A stretch of DNA of 64,000 nucleotides from Trypanosoma brucei (GCA_000002445.1 CH464491.1:1856001-1920000), one strand, 5' to 3'. Positions 2,490 through 55,572 are shown, counted from the first letter of the stretch. The notes: generated by a model from the sequence alone, not told the origin. Made by a program: numbers and translations.

Positions 2490-3460
2490 CGCGCGCAACG
2501 AAAAGGTAACCGCTAGTACTGACCTTGGGTGCGCTGGTACAATTCTTTTAACGTACCGCAGCATAATCGAGGAGGAAAGGACGTTACACGGCGGGGAGCA
2601 GATCGATCAAACAAATGACACAGGGTGCTTTCCCTCAGCCGAAGGGATACGCACAAAATACAAATGTGTGCGTGGTCGACAGCCTTAAAACTATTAATAT
2701 GATCTTCCCCTGGTGTTACTTATCCGTCCTGTGGAGGCGTCCACGCCAGCCTACCCTTCAACAAACAGAGTTCACCTGCCAGGGAGGAAACGAAATAGAA
2801 ACAAGAACTCCAGTGTTTGATTCCTTTGGTTTGATTTGTTTGCACGAGGATAGAACAGGGGTTAAAAGTAGCAATGAGCGCACGCAGAAACATTAGTCTT
2901 ACTTCGTACAAACGGTCACCCCCCCCTCACACACCAGCTACATTGAGGGTTACATCGGAAAAAGTACAGCTGCGGTGCCACCAGGACACCCGGAAACCGA
3001 TGGCGCGGTAGCATCTTGAGGGGAAGAGGAGGCACAGTGTTAAAAAACGCACCACAAAAAGGGGAATAATGTGCCAGTAGGATCCGGTCGCAACGTGAAA
3101 CTGAAGGCGACGCCCTCCACTTCACGCCCCAGCACCTCCCTCCCCCAAATAAAAAACGTTCGGTAGGCTTGCTACACGAGGTAGGCAATCTTTAATCGCT
3201 TCGGAAATTGCAAACACACCCACACTCTCGTGGGGACCGACGGCGGAGAGTTTACACACTGCGATAACCTGCAGGTGATGGTTAAATTGAATGATGTTCA
3301 GCAGGGAATGGGGGCAGTGATGAAGTCCGGTACCGCAGTAGATATAGAGAACGTCATCGCTTTGAGAGATTTTAGGTTGTTTCCCAACTGGATCCCCTTA
3401 TCCACAAGCATATTACAATTCCCCACCATTAAAGAAATGCAGAACCCACCCAATTCTGCC

Positions 3461-6450: not shown

Positions 6451-7974
6451 CTACTGTTTTTCATCCTCGCTCAGAGTGCCTGTTACTATTCTCCCGTAAA
6501 AGTCCTCTTTCCGCACCAGTTGGCAATAGACAAGCGAAATGACCATTACAACCCCAAGTACTGAGAGGTTTACGATAACCGACTGCGTACTTTCCACCAT
6601 ACCCAGGACGATGAGTCCAGCGAAAAGTATCATTGGAATAATAAGCAAGTACAGTAGCTTCCCCTCAAAAGGAGCTCTGAACGGCCGCTTGAGATGCGGA
6701 TGGCGGTGGCGTATGACCAGGAAGGCAATAAAGATCATAAGCACCCTCAACCCGTAGAGCACTTGATCAACCTTCACGAGCGGTCCAAATTCGAGGAAGA
6801 CGCCGAACAATGCGCTTAATACTGCATTTAGGGTTAGGGTCCAATGATAAGTGCCGAAACGCTTGTTCCGTTTATACAAGACCCGATTAATCGGCCCGGG
6901 AAATGCTTCCGTGTAGGCAACACCTGCGATGATTTGTGTTGTTGTGCAGAAAGAAGAGAGCAGTAAGGCATGTGCAGACAGCGCGCTAGCAACAACCATA
7001 AATACCCTTAGTGGCACACCTCCCACACTGAAGGCGACGTCCGACCAGAAACCTGTTACCCACTGTGACAAATCAGGTAGGCCTTCTCGTATGCTTGCTC
7101 CAGTGAGTATTGGGGGAATGTACGTAAGGTAGGCAAGTCCCAGAAGAGGCGCAAGCGCGCGGATGAAGGTTCGTCGAGGTGCCTTGGTCTGTTCAATAAC
7201 CGTGGCGGCTTGCTCCAACCCACAAAGGTTCCACGAGGTAGTTGTTATGAATGTCGCCCAATCAATAGATGGGGGAATGTAGCTTATCGCCGGCCAGTTG
7301 AGGTAAAAATTGCTCTTGATCATATGCATCGAAAATAACGTCAAAAACGGTGCGACCGTCACAATAGAGAGTGCGATACTCAATTTTCCAACAGCCTGAA
7401 CTCCCACCATGTTCAACGTGTACGTCACCAGCACCATGCCCAACCGAAGCAGTTTACTGATCGTGTCAGAACAAGGGACTGCAGTGCACACGTACTCAGA
7501 TATGAGCACGGTATAAAGTGCATTGTCGATGAAAATGAGCAGGAAAGTCAGTAATACCATCGCGAAGTAAACAACACGATGGAATGAAACGTTGTACCAC
7601 ATTAAGAAGGCAGCGTTCGACGGTATGGCTGTTGCCAATTCCGCAACGACGATAGTCGTTGGCGCTGCCATGAGTAGGGGAACCAGAACAATAGAAATGA
7701 TACCAAGCAGTGGCCCTCCCCCGAGGACAGTTTCTTCAATAGCGTAAGCCCCAGAAGTAGTATACGCGTACATCAACCCCATGAGCATTGGTACTGAAAG
7801 ACTCCTCTTTGGAGCCCCTTTATCCAGGATGAATTGTTGCTCTCCGTCATTTGTCTGTCCTTCGACATCGGCCGAGGACTCAATTGGAGAGGCAGTTTCT
7901 TGTCGTTGACGAAAGATGTGGTAACGAGGGTGTTCGAAGTATTGATGTTCGTCCACGAATCCATCCCCAGCCAT
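6451..7974 (-). CDS. APC-superfamily amino acid/polyamine permease (multi-pass membrane transporter)
   Basis: 507-aa ORF with about 12 hydrophobic segments. N-terminal signature GGGPLLGIISIVLVPLLMAAPTTIVVAELATAIPSNAAF is typical of APC/AAAP transporters. Confidence 0.7.
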   Translation of the reverse strand: MAGDGFVDEHQYFEHPRYHIFRQRQETASPIESSADVEGQTNDGEQQFILDKGAPKRSLSVPMLMGLMYAYTTSGAYAIEETVLGGGPLLGIISIVLVPLLMAAPTTIVVAELATAIPSNAAFLMWYNVSFHRVVYFAMVLLTFLLIFIDNALYTVLISEYVCTAVPCSDTISKLLRLGMVLVTYTLNMVGVQAVGKLSIALSIVTVAPFLTLFSMHMIKSNFYLNWPAISYIPPSIDWATFITTTSWNLCGLEQAATVIEQTKAPRRTFIRALAPLLGLAYLTYIPPILTGASIREGLPDLSQWVTGFWSDVAFSVGGVPLRVFMVVASALSAHALLLSSFCTTTQIIAGVAYTEAFPGPINRVLYKRNKRFGTYHWTLTLNAVLSALFGVFLEFGPLVKVDQVLYGLRVLMIFIAFLVIRHRHPHLKRPFRAPFEGKLLYLLIIPMILFAGLIVLGMVESTQSVIVNLSVLGVVMVISLVYCQLVRKEDFYGRIVTGTLSEDEKQ

Positions 7975-8216
7975 TTACCCTCTTACTCTTGGACGAAATC
8001 AAACCTTAACCCTTGGTTTCAGTTGTGTTCAGGACCTTTCTTCTACGGGGGAAAAAGAGCATGATACGAACAATGGAGCACCTACAGCAAGCAAGCTTTT
8101 CAGAGATAACCACAAACTAGTTGCTTTGTGCTTTTGATATCGGGTGACAATCAACAGATAACTTAGGTACCGAAGTATCGCCCCTCCGGACAGTGTTCCC
8201 ACTGACCCGGGAACGC

Positions 8217-8254
8217 AGACACACACACGCACAAATACACACAAACACAAACAC
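8217..8254. repeat. Imperfect (CA)n microsatellite
   Basis: acacacacgcacaaatacacacaaacacaaacac. Confidence 0.85.
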
Positions 8255-8476
8255 GTTAAACAGCGCCGTGTGCCGACATGTGTCCCACGTGAAAGTGCTT
8301 CCGAACTATTTTGCATGGCGAATCGGCGGTTATGTGTACCGTCTAGTCCCGCTGTAACGACGTCGCATTGGAAGAGATGCCAGTGCACATCACAGAACTT
8401 CTCATTCCATTAGATCGTACACTTTCCTGCGGGCTCAGTGGTGCGCACCCTCTGCTTCTGCAGTGAAACGCTGCCG

Positions 8477-8494
8477 GTGTGTGTGTGTGTGTGT
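8477..8494. repeat. (GT)n microsatellite
   Basis: gtgtgtgtgtgtgtgtgt. Confidence 0.85.
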
Positions 8495-12370: not shown

Positions 12371-13594
12371 TTAATGCCTATCTGCAAGGAAGCGTCGGCC
12401 CCTAATAGCTTTCAATACCTCCACTCTGAGATTCAGTACGGCCTGCAGGGACTCTGCGCACTGAATTGGTTCTGCTTCACCACACGCAACAAGTTGCGGC
12501 CTGGCGTTAATGATTTCTGAAGTTAACCTGAACTCTTCTTCAGCTCTGTTTATGTCTTTCTGCAGAAGAAAACAGCTTCCCAAATTCAGGGGCAGCCATG
12601 GGTCGTATTTGAGCTTGTCGGTGCCCTCCGCCATCAAACTCTGAAAATCCACAATAGCAGCCTTAAGGAGTTCCTCTTCGTATGCCCGTTGGTCCACTGC
12701 TGCTAGTTCACCAAGCACCTCCGACTTCACATCATCCAAAGATTTCAGAGCTGGCAGAACAACAGAGGCGCCGTCACAACGTTTTGTGGCAGCAGGCTGG
12801 GAACTTTCCTCATCGTCATACTTCCAACTAGACTCAACAATACGCAGTGCAAGACATGCCCGACGCAGCTGAGCATAGTGGTACTCCTCCTTCACCCTCA
12901 GAGCGGATGAGTACGCTTGCAATGCCTCCTTTAATAGGCCTTGCTCTTCATATGCCCTTCCTAGGTTAGCCCACGCGTAGTAATTGGCTTCGTTCAATCG
13001 TATCGCCGTTTTAAAGTCATTAACGCACTGATTGAACTCCGAAGAAAGGAGACGAAGACCAGGTACACGTGTGCTCAAGATACATAAGCCTCTGTGATTA
13101 TATGCGTGGTCATTGTCAGGCTCTACATTGATAATTGAACTGTAATCTACGAAGGCGGAAGACCAATTTGATGAAGCCACGTAGCTTGCTGCACGTGCCT
13201 CCATAGCTCTAATATTTAGTGGATCTTTCTCCAGGCACTGGGAATAACGCTCGATTGCTTTTTCATATTCCTCTTGACCACGAAGGCACTCCCCGAGTAG
13301 GAAATAAGCAACTGTGTTTTCCTCGTATATCTCTATCGCTGCCTCCAAAGCTACCATTGCCTTTACATAATTCGGTTGTGCGTTCCTACCTGTCGGTTCC
13401 AGCAATGAGAGGCCTTCGTCGCACTTTTCGTGAGAAGATTTTATCCGAGCTTCTAACAGCTTTCTCTCCTTGCGCCTGGCTCTCCGCTCCTTACTCGACT
13501 TCGAGCGCTTTGCCATTGTATAATTTCTGGTGAGGTGGGAGAGACATCCAAAATAAAAGGGGGACATTGGCTCAAAACACACAGAGACGTACAC
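12371..13594 (-). CDS. TPR-repeat protein (probable true start MAKRSK... near 13516)
   Basis: Several 34-aa TPR units: AYFLLGECLRGQEEYEKAIERYSQCLEKDP, AYNHRGLCILS, AWANLGRAYEEQGLLKEALQAYSSALRV. Only about 220 bp separate it from the capping-enzyme gene. Confidence 0.7.
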   Translation of the reverse strand: MYVSVCFEPMSPFYFGCLSHLTRNYTMAKRSKSSKERRARRKERKLLEARIKSSHEKCDEGLSLLEPTGRNAQPNYVKAMVALEAAIEIYEENTVAYFLLGECLRGQEEYEKAIERYSQCLEKDPLNIRAMEARAASYVASSNWSSAFVDYSSIINVEPDNDHAYNHRGLCILSTRVPGLRLLSSEFNQCVNDFKTAIRLNEANYYAWANLGRAYEEQGLLKEALQAYSSALRVKEEYHYAQLRRACLALRIVESSWKYDDEESSQPAATKRCDGASVVLPALKSLDDVKSEVLGELAAVDQRAYEEELLKAAIVDFQSLMAEGTDKLKYDPWLPLNLGSCFLLQKDINRAEEEFRLTSEIINARPQLVACGEAEPIQCAESLQAVLNLRVEVLKAIRGRRFLADRH

Positions 13595-13815: not shown

Positions 13816-16800
13816 TTAATCCCTGTTAAGGTCAACGTTTTGTGTCGGAACTATACCCGCTTGTGCGTTACCCTCTTTGCGAAATGCAATCGCCCTCATT
13901 GCAAGCAGGTAGTCTTTCTCGCCGGACGAAATTGTTTTATTGAAGCCACGGTCATTATCCAAAATCCCTTGGAATGTTGAGCAAGCCTTGGGAACAACAA
14001 CAAGTCCACACTCCCGCCCTACAGCAACGAGAAAATCAACCGGAACGACGTTGACTTTTTTGAAATGACCCTTCTGCACCGAAAGCAGAAAGTGATTTCC
14101 CACCCTTGGTAAGAAATCTGCGGCCCACTCAATCGCAAAAACACCGTTACCAAAACTGCCTTTAGCAAATAATGGCTCAACATCGAAGAAGCAACCTATA
14201 AATACCCCACCGGGAATTAGGGCATTGGCCACGCTTTCGATAAGCCGCATCGCGGTGTACTCTGTTCCGAATGCATGATGAAATCCGGCAAACGCAGTTA
14301 TGACATGAAATTGTCTTGGGTGGATCTTCGTCAAGTGGTGACTCCAAAAGTTTGCAGAGAACACATCGGCACAGATAACGTCATAAAATGACATCTCTGT
14401 CATTTCATGGCGTAATGAAGAAATGAGCTCGCTCGCAGCATCCACGACACTCGACTTCAAATCGAAACCAATGTACCGAGCCGTTTTGTTCCTTATCCAT
14501 TTTCTTAAAAGGTATCCCCCACAGCAAATCTCAAGCACGTCATTCGTGGCCACCTTAGGAGTTATTATATCTATGAGTAAAGATGCGCACCGGGTTAAGA
14601 CATGGGTTGCAAACGATGCATTTTCCGGTGGGGGGGCCAAATATCCAATTTCTGCTTTCAAGTTAGTAGCAGAAAATGTGCCCCAACAGTTATCACAATA
14701 GAAGTGTTGGTTTAGGGTGTCATTCTTTCCCATAACACAGAACCGACCACAGTATAGACAATCCCCATGGCCTGTTTCGCTCCAGCACTTTTTGCACCAA
14801 TACGCCATGTGCTTCACGTTCATTCTTCCTACGTCACTTACGTTATGACACCTTCCACACCTGTATTTGGCAGCGTCAAGTAGCCACAGCATTTCCTTAT
14901 GCGTCAATCCAGGCACATGAACAAGTCTCTCAACGATGTCGAACGTATCTGGCTGGTACCCCATATCCGGACCACGGCCCCGAAGCAACTCCCACCAATG
15001 AGAACCATCGTCACTTCGCTTTAGGACGCATTCGATGACGGAGCCGCTCCTAAGCTCGGGGGCAGAGTCCCATATATAGTCAACATATTCATTGTTATAA
15101 GACATGGTATTCTTACCGCTGTCAGCCACAAGAAGCCACGCCCGTTTTACATCTCCACTCTCTGGATGGACATTTTCAACGTCACCAACAATAAACACCG
15201 CAGTTGTCGAGGATGTAGGGATCCAGCTATAAACCGAGGTATCTTTCTCTTTGCAGTTGGTAACGTGAGGCACAAAAACTAAGCCCAATGTTGGATGTCC
15301 TGCCGGTGGGTTTCTAAGTAAGCGCTCAGCTTGAGTTGAAACGGTATATATTGTCCGGACAATGGCAACCCGATTGGGGCTCGTGTGTGGACGGCTTGCG
15401 TAATTGTCAAGCAAACACTTTTCCACGTAAAACCACCGCTCTGGAAAGGGTAGCTCTCGCACGTCAGCTTCTTCAAAAGATAGAATATCCTCCACTATTA
15501 TGACATAATCCAGGTAACTTCGGTAGGAAGAAGCAACGACAGCAGAAAAAACGCTATTTTTCGCCCTTCCACCCAGCCCCCGAAAGTAATCTGGAAGTGC
15601 AGAAATGCTTCCCGTCTTAACGTCTACACAAAAAACATCCCCCTCGCTATTTGTAATCAGTAGTACATTTGCTCCCACGGTCTTACTCCGTACATAGTAC
15701 GGGTATTTGGAAAATTCTTCTGCTGCCGCAGCAAACGTCATTCTGTTGAGTGGGACTGGGACACAATTAACAGGAAGCCACTTCTCCGCTATTTTGTGAG
15801 CGTATTCGTATTGAGCAAACGTAATGGACCTTCTGAAGTGCTGGGGAACATAACCAAAGCAAGTGCTCGACATGTCGAATGACCGACCCGCAGCCAGCAC
15901 ATAGTTTAGCGTCGCATTCAAAAACCAACCGTCTGCTTCCGTGCACAGCGTCACACCAAATTCCTTTCGCAACGTTGTATCGCTCACACAAACACCCGAA
16001 ACGCTGGCTGCCGTATCATCACACAGATCCCCAACGAATGCCAGCATATCAAACACTGGACAAACTAACGTCCCTACGTGGTGAGAATAATCGATATTAA
16101 TGTTAACATGAACAACAGTTGGCTTCGGCCAGTCATTTTGTTCCTTCAGAAGTGACAAAAAATGTGTTTCGTATTCTTTTAAACTGGATAATGTACGTGA
16201 AACATCACATGGATACAAAGAAACAAAAAATGACCGATCAGGCTTGCCATCTGATAGCAACTTCTTGCTTGCATCATCCCCTATCGAGACAACCACGGTG
16301 AGAGGAACTTGCATGCTACAAGCAAATGATGCTACGGCATTTACCTCTGTAATACGGAGGGGATGAAAGTTAATTCCCAATAGAGCCGTCTGGAAAAAGT
16401 GAACATCTTCCGGTTGCGGGATGATTATCGACACAAAAAAGTAGTGGCGGTGGGTGCCAGCGTATCGCCTACTTGATGATGTTCCACAGAAAGATCCCAC
16501 GTAACCCACCGCCAAAACCCGAGGATCCTCTCGAAGTGTCCAGAAGTAGTCGTCCCAAGCAGCTTTCAGCTGAGGTGCAACCTCAGCACCGCACTCCTTA
16601 GGAACCTCAACACGAACCAGAAAACCAGGTGCCGCGCTAATGGCACATATGTCGGACACAGTGCCTGTAAGTGACAAAATGGAGCGGGATAGTAGAATTC
16701 CAGTTGGTGCCTCGGTGCCAGAACAATATCCAGCATTCTTCACATTACTGAAGAATGTGGTAGTAAATACCTGTAAAGCATCATCGCCTGGGCCTCCGTG

Positions 16801-16989
16801 GGAATAACTACAGAGTAACCTCTTCGTTAAGAGTTGAAATAATCCACTTGTTTCTTCGGATTCTTTCGTAGCATCATATTTTCTGATGGTTGGTAACATT
16901 AAAAGATACCGGTAAAAATTGCTCCTGTGCGGTGCTCCGTGATCTCCAGCGGCTTGGGGGACGAAGGACCTGGCATTTGCGTTCAACAT
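13816..16989 (-). CDS. CGM1: Bifunctional mRNA/SL-RNA capping enzyme: N-terminal guanylyltransferase-like domain plus C-terminal cap guanine-N7 methyltransferase (TbCgm1-like)
   Basis: 1057 aa. C-terminal cap-N7 MTase motifs: ICCGGYLLRKW, YIGFDLKSSVVDAASE, FHVITAFAGFHHAFGTEY, LIPGGVFIGCFFD, FGNGVFAIEW. N-terminal nucleotidyltransferase-like motifs: YYVRSKTVGANVLLIT (motif I-like) and SHWWELLRGRGPD (motif VI-like). The two domains are separated by a Cys-rich CxxC cluster. Size and architecture match the kinetoplastid-specific Cgm1 described for T. brucei. Confidence 0.8.
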   Translation of the reverse strand: MLNANARSFVPQAAGDHGAPHRSNFYRYLLMLPTIRKYDATKESEETSGLFQLLTKRLLCSYSHGGPGDDALQVFTTTFFSNVKNAGYCSGTEAPTGILLSRSILSLTGTVSDICAISAAPGFLVRVEVPKECGAEVAPQLKAAWDDYFWTLREDPRVLAVGYVGSFCGTSSSRRYAGTHRHYFFVSIIIPQPEDVHFFQTALLGINFHPLRITEVNAVASFACSMQVPLTVVVSIGDDASKKLLSDGKPDRSFFVSLYPCDVSRTLSSLKEYETHFLSLLKEQNDWPKPTVVHVNINIDYSHHVGTLVCPVFDMLAFVGDLCDDTAASVSGVCVSDTTLRKEFGVTLCTEADGWFLNATLNYVLAAGRSFDMSSTCFGYVPQHFRRSITFAQYEYAHKIAEKWLPVNCVPVPLNRMTFAAAAEEFSKYPYYVRSKTVGANVLLITNSEGDVFCVDVKTGSISALPDYFRGLGGRAKNSVFSAVVASSYRSYLDYVIIVEDILSFEEADVRELPFPERWFYVEKCLLDNYASRPHTSPNRVAIVRTIYTVSTQAERLLRNPPAGHPTLGLVFVPHVTNCKEKDTSVYSWIPTSSTTAVFIVGDVENVHPESGDVKRAWLLVADSGKNTMSYNNEYVDYIWDSAPELRSGSVIECVLKRSDDGSHWWELLRGRGPDMGYQPDTFDIVERLVHVPGLTHKEMLWLLDAAKYRCGRCHNVSDVGRMNVKHMAYWCKKCWSETGHGDCLYCGRFCVMGKNDTLNQHFYCDNCWGTFSATNLKAEIGYLAPPPENASFATHVLTRCASLLIDIITPKVATNDVLEICCGGYLLRKWIRNKTARYIGFDLKSSVVDAASELISSLRHEMTEMSFYDVICADVFSANFWSHHLTKIHPRQFHVITAFAGFHHAFGTEYTAMRLIESVANALIPGGVFIGCFFDVEPLFAKGSFGNGVFAIEWAADFLPRVGNHFLLSVQKGHFKKVNVVPVDFLVAVGRECGLVVVPKACSTFQGILDNDRGFNKTISSGEKDYLLAMRAIAFRKEGNAQAGIVPTQNVDLNRD

Positions 16990-17749
16990 TGCTACCGCTT
17001 ACTTACTTTCCCCTTTTAAACTTATCCACTCCGATCTAACCTTTGATTTTTTTTAAAAAAACCGACACCGTTATCGTTTTCCCCTTACTAACAGTATGAA
17101 GGTAAAGAAGGTGGACTGCATAATTTTGAAATAACGTGGCGACGAAAACGAACAAGCTCCCAATATATAATGGATATTCATCACAAGGAGGAGAAATTGT
17201 ACCCAGATGTAAGCAGCGGTCAATGTCCACGAGCGCAAGGGCAGCAACTACCTGTCCTTTAAATAATGAGGATCTGCGTGTACTCTTCGGCGGCAAGGGA
17301 GCAAGCACAGCTCCGACACACCAAGGGAATAGCTCGCATAACCGGTTACGTGCGCTAGTGTACTGCCTAAGGTAGACAGAGTTTTCCACACAGAAAAAAA
17401 GAGTATGGGCTTAGAATAACCTCACCGTGGGGTGACTTAGGGAAATCAGGAGGCACCACAAACACCGACAAAACTTCGCGTATTTACTCGGCCGCAAGGC
17501 GCACAAGACCACCACTAGCCCAACCGTTGAAGTGGATCAAGCCAACTCAAGAGTCTTGAATAGCGAAACAAGCAACGTAGCCATAACACGGGCAGTTTCC
17601 TTCGCCGCCGCTCCGGGAGAAGGGTATAAAGTAGCCGCAGTAAAAACCCGACACTGGCAAAACCAGAGACGCATCCCCGGCTTCTGCAAACCTTAAAGGG
17701 AGACCGAAGGGTGCGGGGCGTAGAAATCCAGCACATACATATACGACCA

Positions 17750-18000
17750 CCCACCTGTACCCCGACTCACAAGCGGTCCAAAACATCACAACGTCGCGCT
17801 CTGCTGTCCTGAACACTCGGTAACACACACTTCCCCGCCAACGAATACCCACCCCGCGCGAGTCAACCACCGCACCAACTCACACAATGAAGCAGCAGCA
17901 ACACGCTTCCAGGTCAGCCAATCGGTGGGCACGCGGACCCTCAGAACACACCCATCACCCCAAATACGCTGGCCACACGGAGCTGCACCACTCGGACGCT
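17750..18000 (-). promoter_or_regulatory. GT-rich (sense-strand) tract: candidate Pol II transcription start region for the downstream minus-strand gene array
   Basis: The plus strand is strongly CA/C-rich here (cacacacttccccgccaacgaatacccaccccgcgcgagtcaaccaccgcaccaactcacaca...), so the transcribed minus strand is GT-rich. GT-rich elements have been described at T. brucei Pol II start regions. The tract lies between the tRNA and the first gene of the downstream array. Confidence 0.3.
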
Positions 18001-18461
18001 CACTCAGCACCGAAACGGCCGCACCAAGAATGCGTAGATTTTTGTTTGTTACTGCGCGTGTTTTGGAAGTGCGCACAGGGGGTCCGTCTCTCGAGTCAGT
18101 ATCTCAGTAAAGAATCGGCTGTACGGGCTTCGGGGAGTTGAAACCACCGCCCTTCCACCTCAACACAAGCCTGGTGGTGAAGCAAGCTGCTGGCGCTCGA
18201 CTTTCCCCTTCTATCGCAGGTTAGTGAACTCAGGCAGCGGCACCAAGGATGGAAAAGAAGCAACATCTTCCCCCTTTCTTCAAAATGTATTCCTTCAAGG
18301 ATCGACAACTTGCCACGCTGCAGATCCTGCGGGTCAAACGGACGGTGAATAAAGGAAAGTGGGATATACTTCCCTAACGGACTTTGTTGCCTGGCCCCTT
18401 TTTCGCCCATCTTTTTCGATTTTTTTTTTTGGAAGCAAAAACGGATGCAAAAAAAAAAAAA

Positions 18462-18530
18462 CAGGTTGGAACTCGCGGGCACCGAGACATTCGAAAAGGG
18501 GAAAGATGTTTTGCCAGCAGATACCGAAAA
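18462..18530 (-). ncRNA. Candidate divergent Pol III small RNA gene upstream of tRNA-Gly (identity unknown)
   Basis: On the minus strand a T13 run (A13 on plus, 18449-18461) lies about 150 nt upstream of the tRNA 5' end. A second oligo-T run on the plus strand (T11, 18420-18430) faces it. Trypanosomatid snRNA/7SL genes characteristically sit about 95-100 bp upstream of, and divergent from, a tRNA whose A/B boxes act as their promoter. The predicted transcript, GGCAAAACAUCUUUCCCCUUUUCGAAUGUCUCGGUGCCCGCGAGUUCCAACCUG-Un, contains a hairpin ACAU...AUGU. No known snRNA could be matched from memory. Confidence 0.2.
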
Positions 18531-18611
18531 TATCCTCAGAGGTCGAAATCCGCTACTGAGCACTTTCCTCCAAATATAATGACGAGAATTATCTTCGCTG
18601 CTGCGCCTGCC

Positions 18612-18682
18612 GCGCCGTTGGTCTAGTGGCATGATGGTACCCTCCCAAGGTATTGACCCGGGTTCGATTCCCGGACGGCGCA
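18612..18682 (+). tRNA. tRNA-Gly (anticodon CCC)
   Basis: 71-nt cloverleaf folded by hand. Acceptor stem GCGCCGT/ACGGCGC. Anticodon stem GTACC/GGTAT with loop CTCCCAA (anticodon CCC). T arm CCGGG-TTCGATT-CCCGG. The B box GGTTCGATTCC and the A-box-like TGGTCTAGTGG are present. It is antisense to the surrounding minus-strand gene arrays. Confidence 0.9.
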
Positions 18683-18684
18683 TC

Positions 18685-18689
18685 TTTTT
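18685..18689 (+). terminator. Pol III oligo-T terminator of tRNA-Gly
   Basis: A TTTTT run begins 3 nt after the discriminator base. Confidence 0.6.
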
Positions 18690-20151
18690 CGCGTCACTCC
18701 TCTTTTCGAGCCTTCAACCGGATTGTGCGGCTTTTCTATCCACACCTCGAAAATGTATGGCGAACGCTGTCGCCACCATCTTCCCAAACGTATGAACGGG
18801 AAAAACAACCAAACAACCAACATATGAGAGTCGCTTCCTCCACTCCACAATTACGGCCCCTTCCGCACATTTCGCTTGCGGAATCGCCAAACAGCACACC
18901 ACCAGCGTCTATCCCAGACCTTTCCAGCCCATCGTTTTCTCATTCAAGGTATATCGGCATTGTTCCCATACTCTGCCTGTGGCACCCTGCTTGGTGCCAT
19001 GTTCCTTAGCGTACTCGCAAGCCGCTATCTCTATCTTGTAGCAACCACCAGTGCATTCAGCTTTTCGGGCAGTTTAAAATTTTCAATTGCCATCTTCCGC
19101 CGAGCCACGCGTTCCGCGCGACGAATACTCTTTCTTGGGCACAGGAGGGTGTGGAAAAAGAGAGTTCCAATGGGGAGGCAGTGAATTCCGAAGAATGCAA
19201 AGCCAATGGCATGGTTGTGTAGGCGCGAACACCGTCTTTATCGATGGAGATGGCATTGCAACCATTTCCCCCTTACGTGAAGATGGAATAGCGGGGAGGC
19301 CCCTACAGACACCATATTAACGCCAAGGTGGCGCCTATAGCCTCGTCATTGTGCTTGGCTCTTGCGCTCTTTCAAGGGTGAGGCCAAGCGCCGGGGTGCT
19401 TCCTAAATATTTGCATTTGAAGCGTGCAGGTGCTCAACAGCCACTAGGCAAGTGGAAAGAAACGATGGCATCGGCTCTCGGGAGAGAGTGCGGTTGCCTT
19501 TCAGCCATGCTGAGCTTATGGGCCTGCTTCTTCAGGTGCCTGTCCGCTGCTGTTATTATTTAGGGCGAAAGTCAGGCGGAGCTTAGGTTCGATTCTCAGT
19601 GGATAGCAATGGAATGCCTCTTGCCCCTTTCAGAAGAAAGACCGAGCTCTGGCAAGGCACCTGCTGCGATGCCGGGGCTGTTTTTTGCACTTTTTGTGAA
19701 GCGTATTTGGTCCTGAAGAAGGAAAGACACGTTAGCAGCAAGACCAAAAAATATCAGAACAACCAAAGGCCTTCAAAAGAAGGGGACGTGTCCGCACCCT
19801 TTTTTTTAAAAAAAAGAGAAAAAGGATAAATGCCTCAAAGCCTGCAACAAATTGGAGGGTGCAAAAGAACATCTGCTAAATCAATGCTTGGCCGGGGGGG
19901 GGGTAGAAGGGCACGCCCGTCCAAGCCTATTTTCAAAAACCAGTTGCCGTTGCGAAACCAACGCTGGTTACCATGTTCCACGCAAGGCCCGATGACAACG
20001 GGCGCGGATGCAAAGACAGTGGGCTATGATATCTATTCAAAAGCCCAAAGCTGCGCCGCTGACTCCGTTGTGAAACGGCGCTTGGAATGGGAAACATGAC
20101 TCGCTAACGAATGGGTAGGCGACAAGAAAGTCGCCACACTGTAAACCATAC

Positions 20152-20191
20152 CCGGCGCCGAGCGTGAAAAAATATAAAAGTGAGGCGCCGG
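20152..20191. repeat. Perfect 8-bp GC inverted repeat (hairpin) with A-rich 24-nt loop
   Basis: ccggcgcc-gagcgtgaaaaaatataaaagtga-ggcgccgg. Confidence 0.7.
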
Positions 20192-22140
20192 TCTGGAGTT
20201 CGAAACCGAACCGAAGTAGTAACCGCCGTTAAATAAAGCTCGAAGCAAGCATCCGTAGGGACAGCTATTGAGTCCGTTTGTGCCGTCATAGACGTCTACT
20301 ATTCGCATGGAATAGCACCGATTGGGCAACTCGGCGGCAAATATGCGTCTAGGAAGTTCATCCACGGTTTTTAATATTACCGTAGGATGACGGATGGGAT
20401 GGGCAACGCAATTTCCCCCTCAATCCGCATGGAATCAATGAAAGCAACTGGCGAAGGAAATGAGTTGGTGCCATCTTTCTGGATTCAAGAAATGCCGGAT
20501 ATGGAAGCAGATGCTGAAAATTGTGCGAATTGCAGGAAAAAGGGAACAAAAATTTGCAAAGCTAAAACAAGTGCTGAAGGAGGTGGCCGCAGAACAATGG
20601 AGGAGGTAAGGGCTAGAAACAGAATTCAAAAAATAAATCAAGGGACCGGAACCTGATAAACTCGCTGCTTGTTCTGAGGTTGTTGAGCACGCCCATTGTA
20701 GTGACTAATGGTCTGAGGTTATCAAAGAATCAGCGGGCGATTGAGCTCTGGGATACATGGAAGGGAAACCGAGAGAATACGATACGAATGGCATCACGGG
20801 CGTTATTGCTTGGAGCAGCGGGGAGGTTTTAGGTCCATACCATTTGCCATGGTAGAGTTCAAACTAGTGTTTGGTGAATTCCCCACCGGCATCGCTTCTG
20901 GTTGGAAAAAAAAACAAACAAACATAAGGAGGGATTGTAGAAACTTGGCAACAACACGGGCACTCGCAGCAGTGATCTATAACTTGTGCTGGAAACAAAA
21001 CCTGATACCGCAGCTGCTGCGCAGAAGAGCATCATTTCTTTTTCATTGAATCCAAACAAACCAAAAAGAAAGGGGTGATGCCCCTCCGTTTTCCAACCGC
21101 AGCAGGTAAGGATCCGCAGACTGAAGGATAGAGAAATTTCAAGCATGTCGAGATTACCCTCTTCAGACAAGGCCAGCGAGCTTCAGACGTGGACTCTCAG
21201 CATTAGACGTCAGAGCGTGACCACCTGCTTTAATAAACAGAGGGGGGGGGGAGGAACGAGAGAAAGCGGTTACTGTGTTTATTGATTATCCCCGATGGGT
21301 TGGCACAGTGTAACGTGACTGCGTCATCGCGGCACTAAATCGCTACAAAGTGGTTCCGTTCCTGACGGAATGGAAGAGACGGTTCCTCCCCAATTCTGAG
21401 GTCAACATGGGGGCGAACAACACGCAGTCAAAAACTAGGCCATTTTAACATGCGGCGGTGCTGCGGGGATCTGCCCTGCGGTGAGCGCCGTCTCTCGTCG
21501 CGATGAAATCCCTACGCAAACGGTTGAATAAAGCTTACGAAACTAGTCATGATTTCCTTTCGAACGGCTTCATCACCTTTGGCACACACACAGATTTTAA
21601 AAAAGAAATGTCGAGGACACCCCTGAGCAGGGAGTTGGCCGTCACCCCCAGTGGTCTAGAGAGCACCATGCTCAGTTGCCTGAGAAAACGGAATATGCAT
21701 ACTTTGGGGCCAGGCATCTTTGCACCCTCAACTTCCACATAAATAACAAAACAAATAATGAAAAGGAAAGGCCCCAAATTACCGGGGATTCCATGCAGCT
21801 GGAAGGGGGGATGTGACCCCACACGCCCAAACTGCGGGAGATAAAATCGACAAAGTTGACCCCGCGTTTTAGGCATCCCTATTGGAGCCCCTCGTGGGCG
21901 GAGAAAAATTCGACCACTCGCTTCTAGCGCAAAAGGTTGATGCGCCACAACAATATTTGTACGAATGGCTCCGATCCCCCACGCCTCACACGTCTACTCT
22001 ATGAAATTACCTTTGTTTTGTCGGAATTCATCATTGCGGCGCGGCCGAACGCACGACGCAACAGCCGTTGTTGGACAAGTTGCACCGGGTGAGTGGCTAC
22101 GAAACGCGCAAACGACCAAACAACCCTCTTGGGCCTTTTT

Positions 22141-22186
22141 GTTATTATTATTACTATTATTATTATTATTATTACTATTTTTTTGG
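22141..22186. repeat. (TTA/TAT)n trinucleotide microsatellite followed by T/G homopolymers
   Basis: gttattattattactattattattattattattactatttttttgggggg. Confidence 0.9.
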
Positions 22187-23459
22187 GGGGTCGACCTCAA
22201 CGTGTCACTGGGGACGGAACAGAATTTTGGGACGTTTTAGGATCAAACATCCGCCCATGCGGCACCCATTCCATAATTTCAAGACACACTCGGTTTTGTT
22301 TGAGAGCTCTTGAGTGTGTGGATAAAAAATTTCCCACTGCCGTTTTCCCGAACTCGTCACAGCTGAGGCCTTAGAGATCTTTACGATCAGTCGCTACACC
22401 TCTGCTATCGAGTGCGTTCGGTGTGGTTGCCGGCTCCGCCTTGAGAGTCCACATTCCACGTCCTCGACCAATCAAAAAGTATTGGTGACTCCTTGTGGAA
22501 CCGGTGCATCTTTTTTTTTTTCTTCAGCAGAAGTAAAAGCTTTTGTCCACCATACAACCTGTTGCCCCAATGAAACATTTACCAGATCATCGCCCAATTT
22601 CTTTAATGACCCGCGGGGCCGCAGGTGGCGTAAGCAAGCCGTCGCTTTTCTGAACGTTTAAACTCTCTGTTTCGACCGGAAAGTTGTAACTCATTGGTGG
22701 ATTGACCAACGACCCACACGACGCATCAGCCGCTGGCGGTGATATATGTGTATATATATATATATATTTCCCTCATCCATAAAAAATCCACATGAAGGAT
22801 TGATGTAAAAAAAAAAGCAAAGCAAGGGATGACCTTTTCCTTGCATGCGGCTTCCTTAGGGGAATTCACCTTTACAACCCCTCTTTGCCTATGCCTGGAG
22901 TGGCTAACTTGTCCTTCGTCAAAGTCCGTAGCCGCGCAGAATGTTATTTTTAGTACCAACGGTGCGGTTAACAGTGATGAAAGGTTTCCGCAAAACAGAT
23001 GTTGCTTAAGCTGCTGGCGCTAGGGGAAATAAAGTTTAAGCACTTCCTCAGTTTCCACAGCGCTAACATCTCCGTCGCTTTTCTCATTTGCTCAGTGTGC
23101 CTATCATAGGTGGTGATGTACTGAAGCGGCACCAAGCAGTTTCACTACCCGCGCTTGCTTCAGACCGTAAGTACGGCGTCTAAAAAAAAAAAAAAGTAGC
23201 TATAGCAAATAGATCATCGGAAAGAATGGTCAACATAAGCGATATTTTTAGCAGCACTCTTGGTGGGTCAACAAATGGGACTCCGTCGCACCTTGTCGCG
23301 TTCCGCCCTCTCGCGTTGAACGGCTTTTAGCGTTCTGTTACCGTGCATGCTTATCCTTAAAAACCCTTTCTTTCCCTCAGACCTTCGGTAATTCATATCC
23401 TTACGTTAATCGCTTCCTCCTTCCCACCTCTTTCTTGCGTCTACCCTTCACGGGGCGCT

Positions 23460-25670
23460 TCATGTGGATTCACTTATCTGCACAACGAACTTTCCATAAA
23501 AATTTTGTGCGAGGTTGTTTCGAAGCCGCGGGTCCTGCTTCAGTTTCTCTCTCACTTTTTGCAGCAGCAAGTCATCCATCTGCAGGAGCTTTTGTAAGAC
23601 AATGGAGCTGCTCTGCTGCGTCGCCATTTGAGCCAGACCAGAAAGCACAAGTTCCACCACACGACCCTTGCCTTGCTGATCCAAACTGGCCATTAGCGTA
23701 CACAAGACATGCTGAGAGCCTTTTTCACATGCAAGCGAGACGAAGTTACGAAGCAACACATCGCAGATGTCGCGACTAGCGGGGATGGCCTTCTCCACTA
23801 CAAATCGTCCATTGTTGTGCCTAGTGAGTGTCACGACGTGTGCCCGGAGAGCGTTGCAAAGAGCCGTGTGCGTGGAGGCTCCCACATGGTCAAACAGACA
23901 CACCACAACATGGGAGGCGTAGACATGCTGGCACATACGTAGCAGCTCATCGGCCTTAATTAGGCTACGGGCAATTTTCTCCGCCCCAAACACTTTAATA
24001 TATTCTTGAACCATCACATTTCCAATGGAGTCATACATCAAGGCTGTGATGTCGCGTTCGATGGCACTGACGAGTAATTCTCCTACTTTAGACTCCTTAA
24101 CTTTGCATAGTGGTAGAAGCTTCCGCACGACCAAACTTCCTCGTGCATCACTTAACAAGTCCCCCACATTACTTCGTTTGACGAGCATCGCTGCAACCTC
24201 CTCAACTATAGCCTTGTTGGGTAGTGAATTGGCCGTCACGACGACGCAAACAACTACGTGCACAGAAATGGGATGGTCCACCAATGAGGATAACTGTGGG
24301 CCCAACAATTGCAGAAGGTGTTTAAAATTTGTCACCGCTTCCTTTTGTCCGGTGTGTGGGATAAGGGAAATAGCGGCCTGAACCACGAAGTTGGCATCAC
24401 CCGAGCTGCACATTTCCACAATGTTTGCTTCACAAGCCGATAACACAACATTAAATATCTCCGCAGCCTCGTTAGACGCGAGCTCTGTCAAGTCATGCGA
24501 TAGAATCTCCTGCAGAAACTTGCACCCTCGTTTGCTACCAAGCAGCGCCGCAACGTCAATGCCTCTTAGGACGGCGGCGCGGCTGGGACAATGAAGGATG
24601 AAAGTTCGCATGACTGGTGAAGCTACGGGGTCATTGGCAAGGTAAAGCAGCACATCCTGTTTCCCATCCTTATGCTCATTCGTCTTCCCCTGCTTCTTTT
24701 TCCCACCCCCGCCGCTGGTTTCGACGAGGCCCAAGGCATCCTTAAGCCAACTTACCGTTTCGGTTGGAAAGCGCTCGATGAGCCGACGGATGGTAACGGC
24801 TGTGTGGCGGTTGCGGAGTTTCACTTGTATCAAGTCTAGTGTCTCGGCCCCTTGGCACAAAACGTGCAAAGCCCTTCGCTGAATTTCGTGGTCTCCATTC
24901 AGCACCAACGAACTCATCACCTTGCATGCAACGTAATGCTCGTGGAGGGCCTCATTTTCTTCGAACAGACGCATCACAACATCAAGTACCATCAACTTCC
25001 TCTTTTCATCGCAGCTTGGAGCGCCCAACGCGTTCAACAGAGCACACACCACACGACCACCGCACTCGTCTTGTACAAGATCCTCAAGAAGTGTGAGCGG
25101 TTCTTCACCTTCATCCTCGTCTGTTGTAGCCGCCTGGCGATCAAGGGAAATAAACACATCTAAAATGTGGCTCAAGGTTTCTTCGTCGAGTTTCCCGTCA
25201 TCTCGCGGTCGCTTGCGCGATACTCCGGCCTGCTCTTCTCCCGCGCTGGTCTCGCAGAGTAAAAGTGAGCAAAGATCATCGCATGCAGCAGGAAGCCTAC
25301 AAGCCTGAGCGAATTGGGCAATGAGCAGCGCCTTCTTTTCCTCCGACACGGCAGCCCTTTGCGGTGTTGTGCGTTTCACAAGTCGTTCGGTGGTGGCGGC
25401 AAAGTCGCCCCGCCGCACGGCTTTCGCAACTATTGACTTTCGCTCGCGATTCTCACGTGTGTGACGCACCTGCCGCTGCTGTGAGCGCTGTAGCGTTCCC
25501 TTCTTGCCCATCGCGATTTCACCTTCGATATTTGTGCATGTTTGTATAGAGGGGATGGGGAGAAGTGCGTGAAGCCATGAAGGGGAAGTAAAGAAACAAT
25601 GCAACGAACGGATTGCAACCCAAAAGGGGAAAATAGACGGAGGTGGATCGGCGGGTTGGGGAATCACCAA
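23460..25670 (-). CDS. PUF/Pumilio-repeat RNA-binding protein (Nop9/Puf-A-like; probable true start MGKKGTLQ... near 25512)
   Basis: Repeated PUF-like helices with a characteristic aromatic/basic tripartite core: NNGRFVVEKAI, QHVYASHVVVCLFDHV, DSIGNVMVQEYIKVF, EKGSQHVLCTLMASL, QQSSSIVLQKLLQ, QNFYGKFVVQ, GDANFVVQAAISL. The first 53 listed residues start at a TTG and look like UTR. Confidence 0.65.
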   Translation of the reverse strand: MVIPQPADPPPSIFPFWVAIRSLHCFFTSPSWLHALLPIPSIQTCTNIEGEIAMGKKGTLQRSQQRQVRHTRENRERKSIVAKAVRRGDFAATTERLVKRTTPQRAAVSEEKKALLIAQFAQACRLPAACDDLCSLLLCETSAGEEQAGVSRKRPRDDGKLDEETLSHILDVFISLDRQAATTDEDEGEEPLTLLEDLVQDECGGRVVCALLNALGAPSCDEKRKLMVLDVVMRLFEENEALHEHYVACKVMSSLVLNGDHEIQRRALHVLCQGAETLDLIQVKLRNRHTAVTIRRLIERFPTETVSWLKDALGLVETSGGGGKKKQGKTNEHKDGKQDVLLYLANDPVASPVMRTFILHCPSRAAVLRGIDVAALLGSKRGCKFLQEILSHDLTELASNEAAEIFNVVLSACEANIVEMCSSGDANFVVQAAISLIPHTGQKEAVTNFKHLLQLLGPQLSSLVDHPISVHVVVCVVVTANSLPNKAIVEEVAAMLVKRSNVGDLLSDARGSLVVRKLLPLCKVKESKVGELLVSAIERDITALMYDSIGNVMVQEYIKVFGAEKIARSLIKADELLRMCQHVYASHVVVCLFDHVGASTHTALCNALRAHVVTLTRHNNGRFVVEKAIPASRDICDVLLRNFVSLACEKGSQHVLCTLMASLDQQGKGRVVELVLSGLAQMATQQSSSIVLQKLLQMDDLLLQKVREKLKQDPRLRNNLAQNFYGKFVVQISEST

Positions 25671-30659: not shown

Positions 30660-32684
30660 CTAGTCGTCTTCGTCTCCATCCTCCTCCTCATCGCCCAAAA
30701 CAGTGTCATCGCAGCTGTTATATTGCTTTTTGGTCGCGTCGAAATCAGAACCAGGCAATTCCACAAGGTGAACCATTGCCATGCTCCTCACGTTACCCGT
30801 GGTGGCGGGAAGCACAACATTGAAGTAGCGCGGGAAACTCTGTACAAGGTAAAATAATCCACCATATCTCTTCCGCACCGCTTCTTGGGCTCCGCGAGGA
30901 AGATGCAGGATTATGTTTGAGCATGCCTTCGGGCCACGCTGTTGCAGGTATTCTGCTATAAGACGCACCAAGTCTTCTTCGGAGAAGTCCTGGCGGATGA
31001 CACCCCGAGGAAGCGGTTGCCCTGGGCGGCTCACGCACCACTGCCCCGCAATCTGGTATTCAAAGTGCTGGAAATATTGTGGATAGTTATTGAAGAAGCT
31101 CCAAAACCTCCGCGGCAGGTAATTTAGTAGTTCCTCGGGGACACTCTTCTTTAAAAACGTTTTGAGTGGAACGTGACCCTTCTTGGGCAGGTAGCGGTGG
31201 AGCTCACGCGCTAGGTTGTCGGGGTCATGAAAGGGATTAGCTGGGTCATTTCGAAATGCGATACGACGCCTCAGGGAACGAATCTTCTTTTTATTCCTTT
31301 CCTGTATAGCGATTTCGAGCTGCTCCTCCAGTGACAAATGCTCCTTGTCGAGGCGGTCTTTGAAGCGCCGCCGCATCACCACATCACCGTTCGCGCTAAG
31401 AGAAAACACAGCGGCGTGGAAACTAAAGAACTTCATGAGTGAACCATAGTAGAGCTCTACCTCTTCCCTGACAGAAGCAGGTATAGACTTCTCAATGTGG
31501 CTGATATCTACCTGTCCTTCCTGCGGCACAAGACGTAGAATATAGTTGCAGCTTTTGGGAGTTGGCGTTGTTTCGCACTCAAGGGAATCGTACCCTGGTG
31601 GGCGTAACAGCACCGAACCGCCATCGCGATCGACGGCAAATGCAAACACATGTTGCATCTGCGCAAAATAAATGATGGCAGCTGGCCCCTTGAAGGGTAG
31701 TAAAGACACCACTTCATACCCAGTGCGCTCGAGGAGGATGCGGAGTGGCATCCACCGCCCCGTAACCCCACCGAAGGCGGTAATGAACGGCTGCAGAAAC
31801 TTTGGATCTGGTTTGTATGCGGCAAACCGCTCCTCCGCCACTTCACATCCATCAAGTGGGAACTTAGCGTACCCTCCGTAAAGCCTGATATACTTGCGCC
31901 CATGTACAGACACCACCTCGGAGGCACGGTGCTTGAAGTACATCTCAATGTGCTCTTCCGTGTAGCCTGGCATTTGCCCAAGCACGTCGTCCAGTGGAAC
32001 AAAGAATGGAGGAATATGAGTGACGAAGCTGCTTAAGGCAAGAACCGCCCCACTTCCCGTTGCCTTCGGGACAGGCAGTGTAGACGTCGTCACATTGAAG
32101 TCCGGGGGTGGTGGTGGGTACTTCCTTAGGCCAACGTCATAATAAAAGTCCACAGGCTGGATTTCGTTCACCCCCTCCACCACCAACCGGCCTGCTGGTT
32201 GCACGAAATAACCTCCTTCGATATCTGGAGGGGGAACCTTGCTGCTGTTGCTTTTTACCTCTTCCTCTTTCCTTTCTGGCGTTTCAGTTTCCTGTGGCGG
32301 AGTGCCTTTGTAAAACCGGAGACCACTTCTATCCAGGCAAATACCAAGTCCTTTTGCCTTTGATAGTGCGGCTGCCAGTGTCTTGTGGGGACGCACGTGC
32401 TGACGACGGCTCTCGAGAGACAAGTCGTTGTACAGAGACCCGACGGACATCCACGTCCCGTCTGGTATGCGGTCCAAAATCTCTTGTAACTCACACACGA
32501 GTGCGGGATGAACTGTGTCAATCGTGGAGGAGTTGTCAGTATTGCTGCACCACCGCCTTTCCACCGGGGTACGGAAGGGCGGCACCGCAAGACCAGCTCT
32601 GAGGCATCTGATGGACTGTGCAAAGAAGTGGCACAGCATTTCAACCGAGATGTGCTTTTTCGTGTGTGTGATAAAGTGAGTCAA
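30660..32684 (-). CDS. Conserved hypothetical protein (proline-rich; no confident family assignment)
   Basis: 674-aa uninterrupted ORF with protein-like composition and PPPP tracts (KYPPPPPDF). C-terminus is an acidic tail DEEEDGDEDD. Co-oriented in the gene array. Confidence 0.55.
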   Translation of the reverse strand: MTHFITHTKKHISVEMLCHFFAQSIRCLRAGLAVPPFRTPVERRWCSNTDNSSTIDTVHPALVCELQEILDRIPDGTWMSVGSLYNDLSLESRRQHVRPHKTLAAALSKAKGLGICLDRSGLRFYKGTPPQETETPERKEEEVKSNSSKVPPPDIEGGYFVQPAGRLVVEGVNEIQPVDFYYDVGLRKYPPPPPDFNVTTSTLPVPKATGSGAVLALSSFVTHIPPFFVPLDDVLGQMPGYTEEHIEMYFKHRASEVVSVHGRKYIRLYGGYAKFPLDGCEVAEERFAAYKPDPKFLQPFITAFGGVTGRWMPLRILLERTGYEVVSLLPFKGPAAIIYFAQMQHVFAFAVDRDGGSVLLRPPGYDSLECETTPTPKSCNYILRLVPQEGQVDISHIEKSIPASVREEVELYYGSLMKFFSFHAAVFSLSANGDVVMRRRFKDRLDKEHLSLEEQLEIAIQERNKKKIRSLRRRIAFRNDPANPFHDPDNLARELHRYLPKKGHVPLKTFLKKSVPEELLNYLPRRFWSFFNNYPQYFQHFEYQIAGQWCVSRPGQPLPRGVIRQDFSEEDLVRLIAEYLQQRGPKACSNIILHLPRGAQEAVRKRYGGLFYLVQSFPRYFNVVLPATTGNVRSMAMVHLVELPGSDFDATKKQYNSCDDTVLGDEEEDGDEDD

Positions 32685-54109: not shown

Positions 54110-54140
<31 letters not shown>

Positions 54141-54336
54141 ATTTTTAATTCGCTCCTACACATTACTTCCGCATCACGTCCCAGACAAACCATTCCCTTT
54201 TCACATCTTTCCATATTCTTCCTTTCCTTGATTCATCACTCAATGCAAATTTGTCACCGTTTAGAGTCCTCAGTCACTAATCATATGTAAAACCAACTAA
54301 TCGAGAGAGTGCATGCAGGTGCCAGCACACATATGT

Positions 54337-54367
<31 letters not shown>

Positions 54368-55219: not shown

Positions 55220-55250
<31 letters not shown>

Positions 55251-55399
55251 TAGATTCACTCACTCACATGTGTCATTTTCTTTCTGTTTTTGCTTTTGTT
55301 TTCCTCTTGGTGTATATAAACAAACATTTATATGTAGATGCAGATATATGTGTATATTTCTTTCTCTTTACGTACTTGCCTTAACCCACAAATTCAGAC

Positions 55400-55470
55400 A
55401 CACGCATACACACACACACACACAAAGACACGTAAAGACACAAACACACACACACACACACACACAAAGA
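55400..55470. repeat. (CA)n-rich microsatellite cluster in the 14-3-3 downstream region. Further (CA)n/(TA)n runs occur at about 53185-53220, 54117-54141, 54340-54365 and 55221-55242.
   Basis: cacgcatacacacacacacacacaaagacacgtaaagacacaaacacacacacacacacacacacaaag. Confidence 0.85.
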
Positions 55471-55572
55471 CATACACGCACGTCTTCTTTCCATCACGGT
55501 GCCGTTAGCCAACCGAGACCAGAAGGCAAGAAAGAAAGAAAGAAAGAAAAAATAGATGGAAATGAAGAAAAC

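Follow-up and report, generated by a model that had tools for sequence, protein, structure and literature searches.

A 6.5-kb gap on chromosome 11 coincides with a published border between transcription units

The stretch of DNA analyzed here, a 64-kb window of the Trypanosoma brucei genome (Tb927), contains a 6470-bp gap at positions 16990-23459 that lies exactly between a 1057-amino-acid (aa) open reading frame (ORF) and a 736-aa ORF, and this gap is very probably a head-to-tail boundary between two co-directional RNA polymerase II (Pol II) polycistronic units on chromosome 11 (chr11). Every ORF of at least 240 aa across the window was on the minus strand. Apart from the gap, 21 spaces separated the long ORFs of this strand, with lengths of 168 to 2131 bp, and the gap was 3 to 38 times longer than these intergenic spaces. 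Its GC content (~50%) was like that of the surroundings. A previous sequence-only reading of the window had described the gap as free of ORFs amid minus-strand genes and had proposed that it splits the window into separate transcription units. Both claims held, in that no credible ORF was found (the sole ORF of at least 150 aa, at 18096-18683 on the minus strand, is spurious, as described below) and in that a published table of Pol II units places a unit border exactly there.

The window was placed on chr11 because the tRNA gene found by ARAGORN and Rfam at 18612-18682 matched the published coordinates of Tb11_tRNA_Gly_1, a plus-strand gene with anticodon CCC at chr11 1874612..1874682 (Padilla-Mejia et al. 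2009, PMC2695483, Additional file 1). From these coordinates, the whole window corresponds to chr11 1,856,001-1,920,000 and the gap to chr11 1,872,990-1,879,459. This placement agreed with two poly(A) sites from the study of Kolev et al. (2010), since the site of Tb11.02.4540 at 1,868,274 fell 97 nucleotides (nt) downstream of the ORF at 12371-13594 and the site of Tb11.02.4600 at 1,886,536 fell just downstream of the ORF at 30660-32684. When gene numbers were counted from these poly(A)-anchored neighbors, the ORF at 13816-16989 corresponded to Tb11.02.4550 and the ORF at 23460-25670 corresponded to Tb11.02.4570, the gene for PUF10. A different locus, chr09-I, at which an annotated tRNA-Gly gene overlaps an unlikely ORF, was also considered and was ruled out because the CCC gene is Tb11_tRNA_Gly_1.

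In the study of Kolev et al. (2010; PMC2936537), putative Pol II units were defined by 5'-triphosphate-enriched RNA sequencing together with earlier maps of histone marks. Table S14 of that study lists three consecutive units on the minus strand of chr11: the first extends from Tb11.02.5080 to Tb11.02.4570 (type "Divergent"), the second from Tb11.02.4550 to Tb11.02.4500 (type "next to tRNA"), and the third from Tb11.02.4485 to Tb11.02.4200 (type "Internal"). PUF10 is thus the final ORF of the upstream unit, and Tb11.02.4550 is the first gene of the downstream unit. Since the second unit is listed as starting next to a tRNA gene, and since Tb11_tRNA_Gly_1 alone qualifies nearby (that part of chr11 has no other tRNA gene, the next ones being at 3.45 Mb; PMC2695483), the gap was identified as the published head-to-tail border. 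Kolev et al. also reported that Pol II is strongly stopped by tRNA genes and that primary 5'-triphosphate reads are enriched at units with a start close to such a gene (PMC2936537). Moreover, Pol II termination is often tied to a tRNA gene, and the histone variants H3.V and H4.V and base J are associated with termination generally (PMC5359979). The supplements of Staneva 2021 contained no coordinates for this locus.

A conserved tRNA-Gly(CCC) gene lies antisense to the flanking Pol II genes

The tRNA-Gly(CCC) gene at 18612-18682 is on the plus strand and is therefore antisense to the flanking Pol II genes. In addition to being called by ARAGORN, it matched the Rfam tRNA family (RF00005) over its full length (1-71) with a score of 62.3 bits (gathering score, 29), and it showed a cloverleaf and a valid anticodon loop. 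With the consensus forms of the A box and the B box as the guide, both elements (TGGTCTAGTGG and GGTTCGATTCC) were readable within 18612-18682. A T5 run, read from the sequence at 18686-18690 on the plus strand and beginning 3 nt past the tRNA end, is the Pol III terminator; T runs of 4 to 10 follow all T. brucei tRNA genes (PMC2695483). The gene is single copy and is the sole CCC isoacceptor gene in the T. brucei genome (PMC2695483). Its sequence was identical at 71 of 71 positions in both Trypanosoma congolense and Trypanosoma melophagium and at 69 of 71 positions in Porcisia hertigi, in which a compensatory change was present in the acceptor stem. By these features, it is an intact nuclear tRNA gene under purifying selection.

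The spurious ORF mentioned above (195 aa, ATG initiated, 18096-18683 on the minus strand) overlaps the tRNA gene in the antisense direction. It had no Pfam match, and in T. congolense and T. melophagium nothing of it was conserved beyond the tRNA itself. A similar artifact, annotated as "hypothetical protein, unlikely," overlaps another tRNA-Gly gene at chr09-I (Padilla-Mejia et al., PMC2695483).

The coding strand between the tRNA gene and the downstream unit is GT rich

In the space that separates the tRNA gene from the first gene downstream, the minus (coding) strand was found to be rich in G and T at 17626-18000. All 250-nt windows starting at 17626-17776 had 67 to 70% G+T on the minus strand, with those starting at 17726-17776 falling within the top 0.7% of 250-nt windows in the 64 kb, as did the interval 17750-17999, which had 69% G+T. 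In T. brucei, coding-strand elements rich in G and T were shown to drive initiation by Pol II in one direction as well as deposition of H2A.Z (Wedel et al. 2017, PMC5579346). The stretch at 17626-18000, a candidate promoter, resembles the GT-rich dispersed promoters described in that study in its G+T content on the coding strand, its length of ~375 nt, and its position just upstream of the first gene of a unit. We consider 17626-18000 likely to be the core of a transcription start region, a function that is predicted from its composition.

Proposed organization of the boundary

In the organization that we favor, minus-strand transcription from the divergent start at Tb11.02.5080 would end past PUF10, within the 4.8 kb before the tRNA gene. 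The single-copy antisense tRNA-Gly(CCC), as a presumably active Pol III gene, would act as a block to Pol II, and the Pol III complex assembled on it would contribute to Pol II termination, with the tRNA gene rather than chromatin marks as the putative cause. Pol II would then re-initiate within the 1.6 kb that separates the tRNA gene from the methyltransferase-domain gene Tb11.02.4550, where the coding strand is strongly GT rich, and the outcome would be a short unit that runs from Tb11.02.4550 to Tb11.02.4500 and comprises about six or seven genes. Most of the length of the gap in T. brucei would come from nonconserved, lineage-specific DNA, including a dead, antisense ingi-type retroelement fragment in the termination zone. 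The start of a new unit at the gap was adopted from published work; the present analysis established which locus this is, how the gap is built, the retroelement fragment, and the conserved position of the tRNA gene.

Several points weigh against this organization. The boundary at this locus rests on one published table together with sequence features, and Table S14 supplies the first and last ORFs of each unit rather than the coordinates of start sites. GT-richness is not unique to the gap, in that stretches at 53.5-57.4 kb of the window are equally or more skewed and yet are not listed as a start site, which is a difference from the promoters of Wedel et al. (PMC5579346). Finally, a sense-strand pattern of G tracts has been described at start sites. 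The two runs of 10 G residues in the gap (G10; described below) do not match this pattern, because they are on the noncoding strand with respect to the downstream unit, being C runs on the coding strand of both flanking units.

The locus is itself one of the T. brucei "next to tRNA" borders of Table S14 (Kolev et al. 2010), with which it shares co-directional genes, an intervening tRNA gene, and a long spacer; the spacer anatomy, the retroelement remnant, and the finding that the tRNA gene is conserved across species are added here, and there is otherwise no difference. A second comparison can be made with the tRNA-associated Pol II termination region on chromosome 3 of Leishmania major (cited in PMC2695483). 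There, too, a tRNA gene is present where Pol II units end, but that region is a convergent strand switch, whereas the border described here is head to tail with putative re-initiation directly downstream.

Beyond the organization outlined above, a bolder proposal can be advanced only tentatively, and we regard it as more doubtful than not. The antisense tRNA-Gly(CCC) might be a selected, position-fixed boundary element, retained immediately upstream of one and the same methyltransferase-domain gene from before the split between Trypanosoma and the Leishmaniinae, with its Pol III complex terminating upstream Pol II transcription and helping to seed the downstream start, and the spacer might be a tolerated landing zone in which ingi-type retroposons were captured independently in T. 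brucei and in T. congolense. The boundaries of T. brucei Pol II units are reportedly marked by histone variants, as is said to have been described by Siegel et al. in 2009.

The boundary (in 2010), the tRNA gene, and the rules that apply to them (tRNA genes at borders, GT-rich starts, and retroposon remnants between units) are already published for this genome. What the present analysis illustrates is that a trypanosome transcription unit boundary is recognizable from raw sequence alone. Its additions are the retroelement remnant, a separate counterpart in T. congolense, where it lies across the tRNA gene from the T. brucei position, and a position of tRNA-Gly(CCC) that is deeply conserved. 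These additions leave current understanding unchanged, and the conserved tRNA position or the paired dead retroposons could serve as a test case for a causal role of tRNA genes at boundaries.

The position of the tRNA gene is kept in other trypanosomatids

Syntenic intervals of other trypanosomatids were compared with the gap by tblastx and blastn (T. congolense, T. melophagium, and P. hertigi). In all three species, the ortholog of the methyltransferase-domain gene was found to be preceded, at a distance of 1.1 to 6.2 kb, by an antisense tRNA-Gly(CCC) gene. In T. brucei, the gap between PUF10 and the methyltransferase-domain gene is 6.5 kb long and the tRNA gene is 1.6 kb upstream of the latter. 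The gap is 2.4 kb long in T. melophagium (interval L002), in which antisense tRNA-Leu(AAG) and tRNA-Gly(CCC) genes are present, and 7.8 kb long in T. congolense (L003), in which the antisense tRNA-Gly(CCC) gene lies 1.6 kb after PUF10. In P. hertigi (L004), PUF10 was not within 10 kb, and the antisense tRNA-Gly(CCC) gene, adjoined by tRNA-Ala(CGC), lies 1.9 kb upstream of the methyltransferase-domain gene, with more tRNA genes ~7 kb farther upstream. The syntenic interval of Trypanosoma theileri (L001) consists mostly of Ns and was uninformative with respect to the tRNA gene. The position of the tRNA gene is kept in the three species compared. Conservation in the gap, at either the DNA or the protein level, was otherwise confined to the outermost parts of the two neighboring genes.

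The P. hertigi interval proved to be a multi-tRNA cluster, with tRNA-Leu(AAG) and tRNA-Ala(CGC) and with tRNA-Gly(CCC) and tRNA-Ala(CGC) at its two ends (872-1102 and 8002-8202), ~7 kb apart. This arrangement agrees with that of the L. major cluster chr11-I (5S, Leu-AAG, Ala-CGC, Gly-CCC ... Ala, Leu, 5S), which contains the same single-copy tRNA-Gly(CCC). The Leishmaniinae locus differs from that of T. brucei in being a multigene Pol III cluster with an inverted duplication, whereas T. brucei retains the Gly gene alone. Padilla-Mejia et al. 2009 (PMC2695483) did not include the locus in their list of syntenic tRNA clusters. The P. hertigi interval also carries a called 541-aa ORF on the opposite strand (1688-3313); Pfam showed no domain in it, and it is possibly spurious.

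The gap contains a dead ingi-type reverse transcriptase fragment

When 10 reverse transcriptase (RT) proteins of the ingi clade, from T. brucei subspecies, Trypanosoma grayi, T. theileri, and Trypanosoma vivax, were compared with the whole window by tblastn, all 10 queries (13 high-scoring segment pairs) matched 21146-21900 on the plus strand, and no other significant matches were obtained in the 64 kb. The ingi-clade proteins had been retrieved with the use of a lure sequence. The best match was that of a T. vivax protein (P0020; E = 7e-20), with identities of 31% over 160 aa and 29% over 98 aa; the other matches included P0018 (E = 2e-10 to 3e-9), a T. theileri protein (P0016; E = 3e-10), and a Trypanosoma brucei gambiense protein (P0008; E = 1e-6). 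RT motifs were aligned in the expected order, namely, GFRPG.STLD, VFIDY..AFD, and GVPQGSVLGP. Four in-frame stop codons were present in the first 160 aligned codons, a frameshift was located near 21610, and the catalytic FADD motif was lost, with LSNG in its place. These features identify 21146-21900 as a dead fragment of an ingi-type RT gene that is like a degenerate ingi/L1Tc-related element (DIRE), antisense to the Pol II units and located on the side of the gap between PUF10 and the tRNA gene.

By eye, a single plus-strand frame around 21.2-21.6 kb had looked like a non-LTR reverse transcriptase. This fragment had escaped generic searches, as neither Pfam searches of the three plus frames nor searches of Pfam, PDB, and a large protein database with a stitched pseudo-protein detected the RT stretch. 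Similarity to endonuclease, RNase H, or zinc-finger domains was not found in Pfam searches of the three plus frames of 18700-22100 or in tblastx comparisons with a pair of ingi-type loci from T. vivax (L005 and L006, the latter with a called zinc-finger ORF), which gave an RT match only. No poly(A) tail or target-site duplication was identified for the remnant, and the published TbSIDER1, TvSIDER1, and LmSIDER2 sequences had no match in the gap by blastn. A candidate for the Pr77 hallmark or a SIDER at 22187-22760 was rejected; "ACCTCAACGTG" looked like Pr77 by eye, but in blastn comparisons with L1Tc Pr77 and the SIDER sequences the best match in the gap was an 11-mer at 22194 with an E value of 1.7, and a chance match within a gene at 44591 was better. 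The label "DIRE-like" is used because the remnant departs in part from the definition of DIREs, to which the hallmark belongs. The remnant resembles the DIREs described by Bringaud and colleagues (PMC3820030 and PMC1874656) in its protein similarity to ingi-clade RT, its stop codons and frameshift, and its location between units; it differs in that ~0.75 kb of RT is detectable here compared with ~5 kb for a DIRE, and in that the Pr77/79-bp hallmark, endonuclease, poly(A) tail, and duplication were not found.

A degenerate ingi-clade RT remnant was also detected in T. congolense, at 7027-8028 (minus strand of L003; best E = 5e-11), antisense to the genes and between the tRNA gene and the methyltransferase-domain gene. 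No RT remnant was found in the T. melophagium, P. hertigi, or T. theileri intervals. Since the remnant in T. brucei and that in T. congolense are on opposite sides of the tRNA gene and do not match each other, the simplest reading is that they would represent independent insertions.

In the sequence-only reading, a retroelement filling the gap was named as a finding that would refute the boundary, and a dead RT remnant does occupy part of it. We considered whether the gap is instead an oversized spacer or 3' untranslated region within one continuous Pol II unit, inflated by retroposons, with an incidental tRNA gene and no termination or re-initiation. The presence of the RT remnant fits such an arrangement, as do the T. 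melophagium interval of merely 2.4 kb, which indicates that most of the length in T. brucei is lineage specific, and the absence of conserved sequence apart from the tRNA gene. [quoted passage not shown] Degenerate ingi/L1Tc elements are, moreover, reported to accumulate at inter-unit regions (PMC4748587), so that a dead remnant of ~0.75 kb is typical of a boundary and does not refute it. A single continuous unit is therefore improbable, and the head-to-tail boundary remains the preferred reading.

Searches for a hidden gene

We also considered the possibility that the gap houses an unannotated functional gene, such as one for a small protein, an snRNA-type companion of the tRNA gene, or another noncoding RNA. 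Genes for small RNAs in trypanosomes are often paired with divergent tRNA genes, and a minus-strand T13 run (18449-18461, where the plus strand reads A13) is present ~150 nt upstream of the tRNA start. In addition, a sense ORF of ~97 aa is conserved between T. melophagium and T. theileri in the equivalent interval. Against a hidden gene, the tblastx and blastn comparisons with the T. congolense, T. melophagium, and P. hertigi intervals matched the tRNA gene alone, and the ~97-aa ORF was unmatched in the window. Since conservation in the gap is limited to the tRNA gene and the adjoining gene ends, either a hidden protein-coding gene or a structured RNA is disfavored. Pfam searches of the 195-aa ORF, of the stitched RT segment, and of 18700-22100 in its three plus frames, which did not extend to the minus-strand frames across the gap, gave no match, and Rfam found the tRNA alone in the gap, both at the gathering threshold and at an E value of 5 or below. 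Furthermore, Tables S2 and S7 of Kolev et al., in their complete form, contained neither an ORF nor a novel transcript for chr11 1,873,000-1,878,999. An snRNA- or 7SL-type gene divergently upstream of the tRNA gene was specifically considered and rejected, as Rfam found the tRNA alone and the upstream flank was not conserved in the other species. Together, these results make a functional gene within the boundary region very unlikely.

The ~97-aa ORF is located between PUF10 and the tRNA genes in both species of the subgenus Megatrypanum (8190-8486 in the T. melophagium interval and 7636-7929 in the T. theileri interval). The two versions shared 67% amino acid identity and 70% nucleotide identity, with a crude pN/pS ratio of ~0.4, and no counterpart was found in the T. 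brucei, T. congolense, or P. hertigi intervals. It may be a small lineage-specific gene.

Homopolymers, hairpin, and microsatellites in the gap

The sequence-only reading had listed several elements in the gap besides the tRNA-Gly(CCC) gene and the GT-rich transcribed strand at 17750-18000. All of the listed elements proved to be present where it had put them, the tRNA gene being borne out by ARAGORN, Rfam, and the published coordinates and the GT-richness by the value of 69%; the RT remnant at 21146-21900 had been overlooked. The two G10 homopolymers, at 19894-19903 and 21242-21251 on the plus strand, were the sole G or C runs of at least 10 in the 64 kb. The second of these lies inside the RT remnant, between two of the RT motifs, and the runs may be products of slippage in unconstrained DNA. 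A hairpin that had been called strong and GC rich was real at 20152-20191, where a GC stem of 8 bp encloses a loop of 24 nt, but its strength was modest to weak (-10.6 kcal/mol; z = -2.6), with 3 of 200 shuffled sequences folding as well. It was not conserved in the T. congolense, T. melophagium, or P. hertigi intervals and is probably incidental. Tandem Repeats Finder confirmed the (TTA)n microsatellite at 22142-22179 (12.7 copies; score, 62) and also detected an (AT)n microsatellite at 22742-22767.

The composition of the gap bears on a further alternative, in which its main role is not in transcription, for example as a replication origin, and the boundary features are secondary. Replication origins of T. 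brucei map to unit boundaries, which is in keeping with such a role. The gap, however, lacks repeat arrays or an AT-rich satellite, has a GC content like that of the surroundings, and contains short microsatellites only; moreover, an origin would coexist with a boundary and would not replace it. We consider this alternative as improbable as a hidden gene. Taken together, the three alternatives are left with a small share of the probability, and the head-to-tail boundary is retained as the explanation of the gap.

Flanking genes and other stretches of the window

The 1057-aa protein encoded by Tb11.02.4550 (13816-16989, minus strand) was 100% identical to a protein of T. brucei brucei TREU927 and had a C-terminal mRNA cap guanine-N7 methyltransferase domain (Pfam PF03291; E = 5e-13). 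Its identification as CGM1 was ruled out, since CGM1 is Tb927.7.2080. On the other side of the gap, the 736-aa product of Tb11.02.4570 (23460-25670, minus strand) matched the Pfam family PUF_NOP9 (E = 1.4e-11) and is PUF10, also designated Tb927.11.6740; the gene identifiers of PUF10 were taken from PMC2830943 and PMC4545788.

Two other stretches of the window were noted. The region at 53400-58900 was AT rich (GC content, 0.31 to 0.44) and strongly strand skewed, with many A or T homopolymers of at least 10, and within it the G+T fraction of the minus strand reached up to 0.77 at 56651-57000, which is above the value in the gap. This region includes two ORF-free stretches, 53442-55572 and 57097-58856, and is not a unit border in the study of Kolev et al. 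(2010).

At the left edge of the window, a second stretch without a long minus-strand ORF was found at 1-3460. It falls between Tb11.02.4500 (3461-5275) and Tb11.02.4485, which is beyond the window, and it matches the "Internal" start of Table S14. Because 1-3460 corresponds to this further start, the window touches three Pol II units; the split at the gap stood, and the count of two units in the sequence-only reading did not. The minus strand of 1-3460 was G rich, with a GC skew of -0.12 to -0.22.

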